A DNA stretch of 64,000 bases from Flectonema sp. DT1601. Lineage: Eukaryota. Within the stretch, counting starts at the first letter, position 1. The number at the start of each line of letters is the position of its first letter. The DNA lies in the NCBI GenBank assembly GCA_964019425.1, contig OZ025784.1, forward strand, positions 248,001 to 312,000, given 5' to 3'. The translations under genes and the position numbers were made by a program. The notes below the pieces were generated by a model that was not told where the DNA came from, did not search any database, and was given only the letters and a program-made list of their open reading frames with translations. Positions 7,964 through 12,605 of the stretch are shown in pieces.

Positions 7964-8360
7964 ATCTCCCTGCTATCCTCATATCCCCACAATAATATTA
8001 TACCTTTTCATTTTCTCTTTCCTTTTCTGGTCTTTTTTTTTTCTTTTTTTCCTTTTTCATACAACGTTTTTTATTTATATTTTATTTTTTTTTTTTTTTT
8101 TCATGTTTGATTATTTCCTCTTCATATTTTTTTTCTATTCTTTCTTTTTTTTTTTTTTTTTTTTTTTCTCTACCTCTCTCTTAATTCTGTTCGTTTCTTT
8201 GAAACGAAAATTCATTTGAATATTATTCCTTGGTCAGCAACCATCATTGTCGCCCTTTGGGCCTGTTAAAAAAAAAAAAAAAATAAAAAGAAAGTTTACA
8301 TCGGGAATAGGGCAGGAGCCAAAAGCTCCCAGTCCGTTACTTCCCACTTATCGAAATTCA
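7960..8360 (+). mobile_element. Family-2 terminal segment (~400 bp) capping the satellite, with invariant end ..gaaattca
   Basis: Three copies (7960-8360, 14023-14438, inverted 17301-17703). Each is joined to the terminal satellite monomer and stops at the same ga(a)attca with different flanking DNA. Confidence 0.75.
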
Positions 8361-8672
8361 TTTATCGTTCGACTTTGTCGACTAATTTCTATTTTCCGTT
8401 TTTTTTTTCCTTTAAAAAATAAATAAAAAGAATTTAAAAAAAAAAAAGAATAAACAATGTTATCATTGTTTTTTTATCGATCGACTTTGTCGACTAATTT
8501 CTATTTTCCGTCCTGGTCAAGACGCTAAACTGATTGTTTTTTTTTTTAATAAATAAAAAGAAATAAAAAAAAAAAAAAAAAAGAATAAACAATGTTATCA
8601 TTGTTTTTTTATCGTTCGACTTTGTCGACTAATTTCTATTTTCCGTTTTTTTTTTCCTTTAAAAAATAAATA
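8361..8672 (-). repeat. Satellite array, interrupted by family-1 copy A
   Basis: The monomer resumes in register at 10244 (aaataaata|aaaagaattt). Confidence 0.95.
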
Positions 8673-10244
8673 GAGTTGAATTTCCAGGTGAGATTTGGAC
8701 TGTTAGCTTTTGGCTAAGGCCCTCCCTGAAGAGCAAGAACAAAAAAACTACTCACACCTGAAGAAAACATACACAAAGAACACACTGTAAGCTGTGCGTG
8801 TATTTTGTGTTTGTCACAACAGGAGAGAAAAGAAAGAATGTCAAGGTTGATCACCTTGCCTATCAACGCACAACATTGGTGGTCTCTACTAGACCCTGAG
8901 TGATCCCACTGGATCTCTCATCGTTCATAGTACCTATGTGAAGTTATAAAATCAAAGGTAAACTATGAACTACAAATGACTTAGCCTGTTATTATAATGC
9001 CACAGGCAGGCCCTGCATTCAGCAACTATCCAGCAGTGCTTGGATGTCCTGATCTTCTTCTAAAAAAAAGAAGGAAAAACAAAACTGTAGCTGGGATCAC
9101 TCAGGATCAACAGACTACCAATGCTACCTGTTGTACTTGCTCACTATGGGGGGTGATGCCAAACACCCAGAAGTACTAAACTGCTTTCCTTCTTGCTGCC
9201 CAGGAGTTTCTGACCAGAACTAATAGAAAATAAAAAGTAGATGGGAAACAATAAAAAGTAAAATGGATATAACTGAAGTTAAACAAGACAAATGAAGTAA
9301 CAGACCAGAACAGAAAGAGAATTGTAATAGAAGATTACAAATAAAAAAAATGCAAGTATCAACACATGATCAGGATACACCAGCAGCTAACAAACAACAT
9401 AAAATTGAAGATCAGTTGCCAGAGTATTTCAACCATGGTAGAATACTCGCCCCTCTGGCAGGGATTATCCCAGACTTGTCCTTTAATTTAGTTGGACACC
9501 ATGGCTTACAACCCTTCCAGAGGGAAGCACCATTATGACTTCTATTTTTTTTCTTCAAGAAAATCATAAGGTGGGAACAAAGAAAAATGCTAAGAGGAAC
9601 CCCTTATTAACACCTAAGACATCTAAACTGCAGCACAGCTTATGCCCAATGCACTAACAGGTCATTCCCTCACACTCAGATCAAAAAATCAAAGTTCAGA
9701 GTGCATCTTAGAGTGAATGAGAGAATTTCCTCCCGCTTTTTTTGAACAAAAGAGATAGGAGAAGGGATAGAAAACGAACATAACAATAAGATTCTAAGTG
9801 AGAAACACTTAGCAGAAACACTTAGCAGCTTTTAAGGAGCTGAAAAGCAAAAAAAATATCTAAGTGAGAAACACTTAGTAGAAACAATTTGTAGCTAATT
9901 AAGCTGAAAATAAAAAAATAAAAAATTTCTAAGTGAGAAATACTTAGCAACTTTTAGAACAAATATTTCAGTAAATAACCTGTAATGATTAAACCATTAC
10001 AAGTTTGATGCCAAAACTGACAAAGACTGAGTTGAATTTCCAGGTGAGATTTGGACTGTTAGCTTTTGGCTAAGGCCCTCCCTGAAGAGCAAGAACAAAA
10101 AAACTACTCACACCTGAAGAAAACATACACAAAGAACACACTGTAAGCTGTGCGTGTATTTTGTGTTTGTCACAACAGGAGAGAAAAGAAAGAATGTCAA
10201 GGTTGATCACCTTGCCTATCAACGCACAACATTGGTGGTCTCTA
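8673..10244. mobile_element. Family-1 element copy A: 1356-bp monomer plus a ~215-bp partial tandem copy (pseudo-LTR-like); non-coding, no TSD
   Basis: gagttgaatttccaggtgag at 8673 and again at 10029; inserted cleanly into a satellite monomer. Confidence 0.9.
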
Positions 10245-10905
10245 AAAGAATTTAAAAAAAAAAAAGAATAAACAATGTTATCATTGTTTTTTTTTTTTAT
10301 CGTTCGACTTTGTCGACTAATTTCTATTTTCCGTTTTTTTTTTTCTCTTTAAAAAATAAATAAAAAGAATTTAAAATAAAAAAAAAGAATAAACAATGTT
10401 ATCATTGTTTTTTTATCGATCGACTATGTCGATCACTTTCTATTTTCCGTCCTGGTCAAGACGCTAAACTGATTGTTTTTTTTTTTAATAAATAAAAAGA
10501 AATAAAAAAAAAAAAAAAAAAAGAATAAACAATGTTATCATTGTTTTTTTATCGTTCGACTTTGTCGACTAATTTCTATTTTCCGTTTTTTTTTTCCTTT
10601 AAAAAATAAATAAAAAGAATTTAAAAAAAAAAAGAATAAACAATGTTATCATTGTTTTTTTATCGATCGACTATGTCGATTACTTTCTATTTTCCGTCCT
10701 GGTCAAGACGCTAAACTGATTGTTTTTTTTTTTTTTTTTTTTCAAAATTAATAAAAAAGAATATAAAAAAAAAAATAAAAAAAAGAATAAACAATGTTAT
10801 CATTGTTTTTTTTATCGTTCGACTTTGTCGACTAATTTCTATTTTCCGTTTTTTTCTTTAAAAAATAAATAAAAAGAATTTAAAATAAAAAAAAAGAATA
10901 AACAT
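10244..10905 (-). repeat. Satellite array
   Basis: A/B monomers in reverse orientation. Confidence 0.95.
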
Positions 10906-12605
10906 CATTCTTTCTTTTCTCTCCTGTTGTGACAAACACAAAATACACACACAGCTTACAGTGTGTTCTTTGTGTATGTTTTCTTCAGGTGTGAGTAGTT
11001 TTTTTGTTCTTGCTCTTCAGGGAGGGCCTTAGCCAAAAGCTAACAGTCCAAATCTCACCTGGAAATTCAACTCAGTCTTTGTCAGTTTTGGCATCAAACT
11101 TGTAATGGTTTAATCATTACAGGTTATTTACTGAAATATTTGTTCTAAAAGTTGCTAAGTATTTCTCACTTAGAAATTTTTTATTTTTTTATTTTCAGCT
11201 TAATTAGCTACAAATTGTTTCTACTAAGTGTTTCTCACTTAGATTTTTTTTTTGCTTTTCAGCTCCTTAAAAGCTGCTAAGTGTTTCTGCTAAGTGTTTC
11301 TCACTTAGAATTTTATTTTTATGTTCGTTTTCTATCCCTTCTCCTATCCCTTTTGTTCAAAATAAGCGGGAGGAAATTCTCTCATTCACGCTAAGATGCA
11401 CTCTGAACTTTGATTTTTTGATCTTGACATTCTTTCTTTTCTCTCCTGTTGTGACAAACACAAAATACACACACAGCTTACAGTGTGTTCTTTGTGTATG
11501 TTTTCTTCAGGTGTGAGTAGTTTTTTTGTTCTTGCTCTTCAGGGAGGGCCTTAGCCAAAAGCTAACAGTCCAAATCTCACCTGGAAATTCAACTCACCCC
11601 TCGTGTGAGGGAATGACCTGTTAGTGCATTGGGCATAGGCTGGGCTGCAGTTTAGATGTCTTAGGTGTTAATAGGGGGTTCCTCTTAGCATTTTTCTTTG
11701 TTCCCACCTTATGATTTTCTTGAAGAAAAAAAATAGAAGTCATAATGGTGCTTCCCTCTGGAAGGGTTGTAAGCCATGGTGTCCAACTAGATTAAAGGAC
11801 AAGTCTGGGATAATCCCTGCCAGAGGGGCGAGTATTCTACCATGGTTGAAATACTCTGGCAACTGATCTTCAATTTTATGTTGTTTGTTAGCTGCTGGTG
11901 TATCTTGATTATGTGTTGATACTTGCATTTTTTTATTTGTAATCTTCTATTACAATCCTCTTTCTGTTCTGGTCTGTTACTTCATTTGTCTTGTATAACT
12001 TCAGTTATATCCATTTTACTTTTTATTGTTTCCCATCTACTTTTTATTTTCTATTAGTTCTGGTCAGAAACTCCTGGGCAGCAAGAAGGAAAGTAGTTGA
12101 GTACTTCTGGGTGTTTGGCATCACCCCCCATAGTGAGCAAGTACAACAGGTAGCATTGGTAGTCTGTTGATCCTGAGTGATCCCAGCTACAGTTTTGTTT
12201 TTCTTTCTTTTTTTTAGAAGAAGATCAGGACATCCAAGCACTGCTGGATAGTTGCTGAATGCAGGGCCTGCCTGTGGCATTATAATAACAGGCTAAGTCA
12301 TTTGTAGTTCATAGTTTACCTTTGATTTTATAACTTCACATAGGGTACTATGAACGATGAGAGATCCAGTGGGATCACTCAGGGTCTAGTAGAGACCACC
12401 AATGTTGTGCGTTGATAGGCAAGGTGACCAACCTTGACATTCTTTCTTTTCTCTCCTGTTGTGACAAACACAAAATACACACACAGCTTACAGTGTGTTC
12501 TTTGTGTATGTTTTCTTCAGGTGTGAGTAGTTTTTTTGTTCTTGCTCTTCAGGGAGGGCCTTAGCCAAAAGCTAACAGTCCAAATCTCACCTGGAAATTC
12601 AACTC
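10906..12605. mobile_element. Family-1 element copy B (opposite orientation to A), with a partial tandem end and a nested self-insertion at 11423-11595
   Basis: ..cacctggaaattcaactc ends at 11073, 11595 and 12605; extra bases acccctc follow 11595 and ccac follow 12605. Confidence 0.9.

Follow-up and report, generated by a model that had tools for sequence, protein, structure and literature searches.

Two non-coding repeat families with a common 3′ hairpin at a satellite-rich locus of Flectonema sp. DT1601, likely non-autonomous retroposons copied in trans

Penelope-like elements (PLEs) occur as partial tandems, with so-called pseudo-long terminal repeats (pLTRs), and cut AT-rich DNA, their own pLTR included (PMC11167929). 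In the PLE of Anolis, reverse transcription begins internally in a multi-copy RNA, within a stem-loop region that is non-homologous to the DNA that is cut (PMC11167929). According to the sections of PMC8557442 drawn on here, non-autonomous Chlamys PLEs carry pLTRs, form head-to-tail inserts, and resemble their partner at the 3′ end only, and the Naiad PLEs are without hammerheads. The present work concerns a 64-kb stretch of DNA from Flectonema sp. DT1601 (positions 248,001 to 312,000 of contig OZ025784.1; hereafter, the window), in which two repeat families, F1 and F2, end in a common hairpin module. Both are likely to be non-autonomous retroposons copied in trans, by way of this common 3′ RNA signal, by one reverse transcriptase (RT) encoded outside the window. 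On a tentative basis, their architecture is assigned to a non-autonomous derivative of a PLE, a plausible reading held with less than even confidence.

A terminal hairpin common to F1 and F2

The motif that unites the two families is approximately 55 nt long, and its 10 copies are confined to 8.3-17.4 kb of the window, where seven terminate F1 and three terminate F2. Its core, AGCCAAAAGCT, has 10 exact matches in the whole 64-kb window, all within 8317-17345; with at most one mismatch allowed, 12 matches were found against 1.85 expected and a maximum of five in 100 shuffles. The same 10 tails were recovered at 77-85 bits when the window was scanned, with filters off, using a covariance model made from six tails, and the next-best match in the window reached 14.6 bits. 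An earlier sequence-only reading of this DNA had quoted the motif of both families, and both were found as quoted, letters and coordinates alike. The F1 termini (...GAAATTCAACTC) lie at 8673 (minus strand), 10029 (minus strand), 11073, 11595, 12605, 15668, and 16992, and the F2 termini (...GAAATTCA) at 8360, 14438, and 17301 (minus strand). These ends (...CAACTC in F1 and ...AATTCA in F2) carry no terminal A-run, are fixed 10-15 nt behind the hairpin, and show no microhomology to the target; the shared module stands at a constant distance from the terminus in all 10 copies. Specific similarity between F1 and F2 is limited to the last 52 nt (71% identity), beyond which the two match only in low-complexity T- or A-rich sequence.

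Different DNA had been described beyond the terminus, which is correct for F2, whose three termini have three different neighboring sequences, and for four F1 ends, which meet satellite twice and the interior of F1 twice; the earlier reading overlooked that the other three of the seven F1 termini run directly into a further F1 unit at its beginning, in a head-to-tail arrangement. A fourth F2 flank, at 17301, is present in the public run X1. The non-tandem junctions of both families number seven, three of them in AT-rich satellite and two in F1; among the five readable F1 3′ junctions, two lie inside F1 itself (F1-internal sequence) and two in the satellite. The opposite end, which had been called variable, is so in F1 but not in F2, where all three copies start at one point with an A-run followed by GAGCATCTCCC.

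RNA folding gives both tails a common architecture, a three-tier hairpin (Table 1). The F2 hairpin is followed by a 15-nt single-stranded end finishing in GAAAUUCA (8353-8360), and the F1 hairpin by a 10-nt single-stranded end, AAUUCAACUC, that reaches the terminus at 12605; GAAAUUCA is contained in the single-stranded ends of both families. As RNA, the F2 tail folds at -19.3 kcal/mol (z -3.3, with 0 of 200 shuffles equally stable) and the F1 tail at -15.5 kcal/mol (z -1.9). The outer stems (UUCAGG-GA/UC-A-CCUGGA in F1, GGGAA/UUCCC in F2) are unlike in sequence and are both paired in the minimum-energy folds, in agreement with the earlier claim that each family possesses one. Nine pairs can be aligned across six sequences, and all 54 cells are paired: seven pairs are invariant, and two adjacent inner pairs are altered on both sides (UA in F1, GC in F2), which bears out the reported swap of two base pairs around an unchanged loop. 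Because there are just two sequence types, this covariation amounts to one compensated difference over two adjacent pairs and not to a statistic. The G.U pair of the middle stem is invariant in six of six sequences. Antisense RNAs are not more stable than shuffled sequences (z -0.4 and -1.5), and each of the four strands folds weakly as DNA (-5.6 to -7.8 kcal/mol; z -0.8 to -1.9), with no strand preference. Since the antisense folds poorly, the DNA hairpins are weak, and the invariant G.U would be A.C on the other strand, the folding models suggest that the folded species is a sense-strand RNA with the motif at its 3′ end.

Structure, insertion, and setting of the two families

The minus-strand copy of F1, taken as the reference, has the layout T-B-C-T, in which T is a tail region of approximately 216 nt and the unit B+C+T measures 1356 nt. 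All three long F1 copies bear, upstream, a 5′-truncated copy of their own tail region (215, 168, and 90 nt), and each upstream partial T matches the 3′ T of its own copy; in copy 3, both T carry two private variants common to them. F1 inserts, fixed at the 3′ end and graded at the 5′ end, measure 173, 1413 (34-nt deletion included), 1524 (168 + 1356, excluding the nested 173-nt tail), and 1571 nt. The 5′ end of the nested tail (..CATTCTTTC) lies at most 5 nt from that of the 168-nt upstream T, and this near-common start may reflect a favored site within T at which the RNA begins. Region B (9776-9965, 11178-11326) contains two to three tandem repeats of approximately 66-69 nt, each with a palindrome-like CTAAGTGAGAAACACTTAG. 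F1 has no open reading frame (ORF) of note and no Pfam match, and F1 and F2 are both non-coding.

F1 is truly mobile, because excision of 8673-10243 restores the satellite unit without duplication or loss. The flanks of the minus-strand copy, joined in silico, form an intact unit (...CCTTTAAAAAATAAATA/AAAAGAATTT...) with 0 nt duplicated and 0 nt lost; this empty site equals intact satellite exactly, as expected from the earlier statement that no target-site duplication (TSD) is present. The plus-strand copy stands in the opposite orientation at another satellite position (GAATAAACAAT/GTTATC), where approximately 1-2 nt were lost and a C-rich filler, CCAC (12606-12609), occupies the 3′ junction. 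A second filler of 7 nt, ACCCCTC (11596-11602), follows the nested tail and is missing from the uninterrupted F1 copy. The 5′ junction of copy 3 falls inside a copy of a neighboring element with terminal inverted repeats (TIRs), whose undisturbed paralogous site is at 21039/21040. The insertion targets are T^T and T^G. As a side observation, the 9-mer CCACTTATC formed at 12606 recurs within the F2 tail (8342-8350 region), by chance or through shared history. Two other descriptions of F1 were rejected: an LTR element or terminal-repeat retrotransposon in miniature (TRIM), in view of the lack of a TSD of 4-6 bp and of TG..CA ends (T begins AGAGACC and ends CAACTC) and the variable truncation of the upstream repeat, and a simple inverted duplication linking the minus- and plus-strand copies, which occupy different satellite positions and have different structures.

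F2 is approximately 450 nt long. Its opening A-rich stretch resembles the satellite's own and is followed by a pyrimidine-rich body, an internal A-run (A16 in copy 1; 16-27 nt overall), and the hairpin module of approximately 95 nt. This order resembles that of a polyadenylated RNA to which the tail module has been attached, an arrangement that might arise by RT template switching. The 3′ flank of copy 2 is non-satellite and is itself a short repeat (14433-14509 vs. 3574-3650, 89.6%). No tRNA-, 5S-, or 7SL-like head was found in F2: ARAGORN detected no tRNA in the window, and the only Rfam match was the signal recognition particle (SRP) RNA gene at 58080-58383. The description of F2 as a tRNA- or 7SL-derived short interspersed element (SINE) was rejected, such a head not being found.

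Table 1. Copies of F1 and F2, their tail hairpins, and the surrounding satellite (coordinates of the window)
Feature	Coordinates	Strand	Description
F1 minus copy	8673..10243	-	T215/216-B-C-T; two T 216/216 identical; precise insertion in satellite unit
F1 plus copy	10906..12605	+	T168-B-[nested T173]-C-T; in phase at another satellite position
Nested solo F1 tail, 173 nt	11423..11595	+	At B/C junction of plus copy; BLAST
F1 copy 3	15580..16992	+	T90-B-C-T; 95% identical to minus copy; 34-nt deletion
F1 internal fragment	16993..17268	+	C region, reference positions 705-980; directly behind copy 3 terminus
F2 copy 1	7918..8360	+	~445 nt; 5′ boundary inside A-run, approximate; terminus GAAATTCA at 8360
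F2 copy 2	13985..14438	+	90.7% identical to copy 3; three-copy alignment
F2 copy 3	17301..17745	-	BLAST vs. 8360-7918: 97.5% identity
F2 tail hairpin	8303..8345	+	Outer GGGAA/UUCCC, middle GGGC/GUCC with G.U pair, inner GGAGC/GCUCC, loop CAAAA
F1 tail hairpin	12548..12595	+	Outer 8 bp with 1-nt bulge, middle GGGC/GUCC, inner UUAGC/GCUAA, loop CAAAA
AT-rich satellite, ~140-nt units	1-3100, 6369-14000, 18940-19160, 21303-21580		Target of at least 3 insertions

In contigs of public runs, the depth of F1 is 3-7x that of adjacent unique DNA (9.8-17 against 2.1-3 in the unique flank for run X3, and 14.3 against 2 for run X1), and unitigs end at the F1 terminus, base 16992. Because the depth is only 3-7x that of unique DNA and the copies are 95-100% alike, F1 is a young, low-copy family, much of which may lie within this window. 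Wider searches for the tail recovered little. The exact degenerate motif had no match in metagenome contigs or in viral contigs, and the relaxed motif had 19 matches in prokaryote genome contigs against approximately 17 expected by chance, none of them with the GAAATTCA box; in four of the 19, each of the three stem positions tested is paired. A pattern of loop, AGTCC, and box gave 50 matches in metagenome contigs, none with the full inner stem or the GGGC stem. Neither tail matched an Rfam family, and a literature search for the tail strings returned only one chance 14-mer, in an unrelated fish paper.

The window is AT-rich between genes. Approximately 15 long intron-free plus-strand ORFs extend from 19.5 kb to its end, a single long minus-strand ORF is found at 4676-6331, and the F1/F2 locus lies in the divergent strand-switch region. 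The satellite comprises two subtypes, with and without CCTGGTCAAGACGCTAAACTGATTG, in opposite orientations on either side of the strand-switch region; packed with mobile insertions, its layout appears centromere-like. A total of 140 stop-to-stop ORFs of at least 75 aa were delimited in the window and 100 translations were scanned against Pfam, the other 40 overlapping listed ORFs, mostly long host ORFs. None of the 100 matched an RT, a GIY-YIG, apurinic/apyrimidinic (AP), or restriction-like endonuclease, an integrase, a transposase, or a Rep/helicase, and only host families were found. Thus, among 100 of the 140 ORFs, no RT, endonuclease, transposase, or Rep contradicts the earlier supposition that the enzyme is not encoded in the window.

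The host is probably a kinetoplastid-like euglenozoan, because its S-adenosylhomocysteine hydrolase (32590-33987) is nearest to the PDB chains 3g1u and 3h9u (730 and 729 bits vs. 669 for the next chain), which we take to be the Leishmania major and Trypanosoma brucei enzymes. This affinity is not certain, since a full-length SRP RNA and a GAF-containing hybrid histidine kinase are also present in the window. The SRP RNA gene lies inside the plus-strand array and matches the whole length of the Metazoa_SRP model (131.7 bits); the kinase (54125-56704; GAF, HisKA, HATPase_c, receiver) is located in an otherwise kinetoplastid-type gene array.

The neighboring TIR element (19161-21302, 2142 bp) is bounded by imperfect TIRs of approximately 90 nt (19161-19250 vs. 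21302-21213, 77% identity), which start with TGAGGCGATCGGCAGGG and hold repeated TTCACGAAAAT-like motifs. It sits in a satellite unit, flanked by a 5-bp duplication, AATCG (19156-19160, 21303-21307), and has an ORF of 364 aa (19566-20657) with no Pfam match. A partial second copy (14510-15579) has the same left end and two internal deletions and is cut by F1 copy 3. This element resembles a DNA transposon, a type said to be rare in the lineage; Merlin DNA transposons are reported from Bodo and Perkinsela in the cited parts of PMC12278014, PMC4728078, and PMC6681497. Its two copies carry a candidate type-P1 twister ribozyme (15454-15537, with a paralogue at approximately 20914-20997), scoring 31.1 bits, below the Rfam cut-off of 67.2, with an E-value of 3.5e-05 on the 221-nt stretch searched; the conserved UAA, GCCGGUCC-AAG-CCGG, and AAGG..GA.GG blocks can for the most part be recognized, along with an insertion of 22 nt. 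The deleted copy forms part of a patchwork at 13985-17745 consisting of an F2 copy, a 71-nt piece like 3574-3650, the deleted TIR-element copy, F1 copy 3, the F1 internal fragment, 32 nt of other sequence, and an inverted F2 copy; successive template switches or repair events may have built it up.

Proposed mode of copying and rival explanations

In the proposed mechanism, an RT encoded outside the window would bind the hairpin on the element RNA and start cDNA at a fixed site 10-15 nt downstream. The RNA would derive from one copy or from a head-to-tail pair, and would probably start inside T. The complex of RT and RNA would prime at breaks or nicks in AT-rich DNA, with no base-pairing to it, which would account for the lack of poly(A), terminal microhomology, and target duplication, as well as for the 0-7 nt of filler. 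Synthesis would traverse one unit in the 5′ direction and enter the upstream T, or jump to a second RNA, and either course would leave a partial upstream repeat, that is, a pseudo-LTR; if synthesis began at the tail nearest to the RNA start, the 173-nt solo tail would result. Target-primed reverse transcription (TPRT) with template choice by 3′ RNA structure fits the fixed 3′ end behind the hairpin, the absence of poly(A) and of target homology, the filler, the graded 5′ ends, and the F2 A-run; more specifically, the PLE pattern is suggested by the systematic occurrence of an upstream partial repeat. From these features we infer an RNA intermediate, the class of the enzyme, and priming at a fixed site. 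The sequence-only reading had regarded the hairpin as the cis signal for an enzyme acting in trans, and the hairpin beside the fixed end of two non-coding families behaves in that way. It had left the enzyme as either a Penelope-like RT or a rolling-circle HUH transposase; the former is favored here, with PLE architecture, by the sense-RNA fold, the G.U pair, 5′ truncation, head-to-tail repeats, filler, and the F2 A-run, and the latter is disfavored.

Several observations weigh against copying by a Penelope-like RT in trans. No hammerhead, hepatitis delta virus (HDV)-like, or other ribozyme was detected in F1 or F2, either at the Rfam gathering threshold or with E-values up to 10 over 7800-18000, and neither an RT nor a partner element was seen within the window. 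None of the three F2 copies shows a partial tandem. F1 is low in copy number, and most or all of its long copies may sit in this 9-kb stretch, a distribution not usually expected when a family is mobilized in trans. The covariation derives from a single compensated difference between two sequence types, and the patchwork at 13985-17745 is not fully explained by simple insertions. Lastly, the kinetoplastid retroelements named in the cited parts of PMC12278014 and PMC4728078 are INGI, CRE, VIPER, and TATE, with no PLE among them.

The partner could instead be a stringent non-LTR retrotransposon, either L2/CR1-like or R2/CRE-like with a restriction-like endonuclease, in which case its protein would bind the 3′ stem-loop and the upstream T would result from end-to-end template jumping at the RNA 5′ end; this is considered possible, if somewhat unlikely. 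The 5′ truncation, the filler, and the absence of poly(A) in F1 and F2 are all compatible with such a partner, and the passages cited here report that stringent long interspersed element (LINE) proteins bind the stem-loop of their cognate 3′ tail, the stem generally and the loop specifically (PMC4176376), that the R2 protein picks the structure of its 3′ untranslated region as TPRT template (PMC11194090), and that RTs of the CRE and INGI clades are known from kinetoplastids (PMC12278014). However, the upstream partial repeats found in all three long F1 copies are a hallmark of PLEs rather than of LINEs in the cited sections of PMC8557442, and the INGI relatives, as far as PMC12278014 is cited here, have poly(A) tails and TSDs, neither of which is seen in F1 or F2. 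F2 also has no tRNA-, 5S-, or 7SL-like head, and the window holds no partner element of this kind. Rolling-circle DNA transposition (HUH, Helitron-like) would make the hairpin a single-stranded DNA terminator or an origin next to the nick site, with products of 1.07-1.16 units arising by over-replication. A subterminal hairpin 10-15 nt from a fixed end, the lack of a TSD, and head-to-tail partial multimers speak for it; a circularly permuted contig of 1366 nt in run X1 was given no weight, since the T repeat alone would yield one in the assembly graph. Helitrons have 5′-TC...CTRR-3′ ends and insert between A and T, a rule at odds with the ends ACTC and TTCA, the variable F1 5′ ends, and the targets T^T and T^G. 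In the one-ended model of HUH transposition, it is at its 5′ end that the transferred strand is fixed, and here that strand is the worse-folding one. With a hairpin that is marginal as DNA (z -0.8 to -1.9), a conserved G.U pair favoring sense-strand RNA, no Rep/helicase in the window, and the internal A-run of F2 left unexplained, this mode of transposition is judged improbable.

Two further explanations are less probable still. A VIPER/TATE (DIRS-like) tyrosine-recombinase retroelement might supply the enzymes, with F1 integrating as a closed circle without target duplication, in keeping with the exact insertion of the minus-strand copy, where nothing was duplicated or lost, and with the terminal direct repeats of F1; kinetoplastids, Bodo saltans among them, harbor VIPER and TATE, elements that carry split direct repeats and are accompanied by a short non-autonomous relative, SIRE (PMC6681497, in the part cited). 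The varying length of the upstream repeat (215, 168, and 90 nt), together with the 173-nt solo tail, weighs against this source because crossover at one site would leave the ends constant. Instead of the A1...B1-A2-B2 pattern, F1 shows a simple T...T arrangement, and filler at the junctions would be unexpected from conservative recombination, so that an enzyme of this type appears very doubtful. It is likewise highly improbable that no transposition took place and that a structured small-RNA or processing signal owes its local spread to segmental duplication, inversion, and repair within an unstable satellite region. All 10 motif copies do lie inside 9 kb, the depth of F1 in public runs is near the copy number of the window, and other duplications exist nearby (e.g., 14510-15579 vs. 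19161-21039). Nevertheless, two F1 copies are cleanly inserted at different satellite positions in opposite orientation, seven junctions with differing neighbors share one exact base, a further F2 flank occurs in another run, and the tail belongs to no Rfam family.

Comparison with known systems

The eel elements UnaL2 and UnaSINE1 are a stringent LINE/SINE pair, and R2 inserts show minimal or no target duplication and contain extra bases. With pairs of this kind, such as that of zebrafish ZfL2 (PMC4176376, in the part cited), and with R2, the families F1 and F2 have in common a 3′ stem-loop shared by different families, which in those systems is recognized by the RT-bearing protein, a stem that may change if pairing stays and a conserved loop, and, in F1, 5′-truncated copies. 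Unlike LINE/SINE pairs, they show no SINE head of the RNA polymerase III type, no terminal short repeats, no TSD, and targets that are not one specific site, and F1 bears its systematic upstream partial repeat. INGI/L1Tc with RIME/NARTc/SIDER, and VIPER with SIRE, also include short non-coding derivatives that rely on an autonomous element, in what is probably the same host lineage. However, the INGI relatives are described in the cited part of PMC12278014 with a 5′ Pr77 signature, poly(A), and TSDs, whereas F1 and F2 are without terminal poly(A) or TSD, and VIPER/SIRE have split direct repeats and constant ends in the cited part of PMC6681497, whereas the 5′ ends of F1 are variable. Helitrons and Helentrons likewise have a hairpin near the 3′ end, lack a TSD, and are sometimes found in tandem; F1 and F2 depart from them by termini and target dinucleotides that misfit, a hairpin weak as DNA, and the absence of a Rep/helicase from the window.

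The resemblance to non-autonomous PLEs, such as MRC1 and other Chlamys elements of Chlamydomonas, lies in the F1 pseudo-LTR with its truncated upstream copy and in a likeness between families that is restricted to the 3′ end (PMC8557442, in the sections cited). PLEs also appear to share with F1 and F2 a fixed 3′ end that lies near a stem-loop and has no homology to the target, AT-rich targets that include their own sequence, and the absence of poly(A) (PMC11167929). Differences from PLEs are the lack of a hammerhead, which the Naiads lack too, and of a recognizable 30-40-nt 'tail' extension; in addition, F2 has no pseudo-LTR and no RT/GIY-YIG partner is found in the window. PMC8557442 makes no mention of Euglenozoa, kinetoplastids, or Discoba (0 occurrences of each term).

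The designation of the locus as an undescribed mobilization system is not supported, as a 3′ recognition structure common to non-autonomous elements and a partner RT is already established (PMC4176376 and PMC8557442, in the parts cited). The kind of system is known, but F1 and F2 themselves are probably undescribed, because their tail strings are not in the literature searched, apart from the chance 14-mer, and have no Rfam family. It is conceivable, although distinctly unlikely, that they are the visible part of a retroelement system unrecorded in Euglenozoa, either a first PLE lineage there or an unclassified RT priming at a hairpin-defined internal site, homing to a centromere-like satellite. 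Whether the retroelement class is new to the lineage hinges on the discovery of the partner, which, if found, would represent a fifth retroelement type beside INGI, CRE, VIPER, and TATE, and would turn F1 and F2 into a compact natural pair of templates, with compensated stem differences, for probing which features of a 3′ hairpin an RT recognizes. The insertions mark the AT-rich satellite at the strand-switch region as a preferred landing site, which bears on the build-up of centromere-like regions. As it stands, the locus is a tidy instance of a familiar principle and involves no new mechanism: as in the described LINE/SINE and PLE systems, one 3′ hairpin probably serves more than one non-autonomous family, a familiar strategy of parasitic DNA, here in a lineage where this appears to be without prior description.

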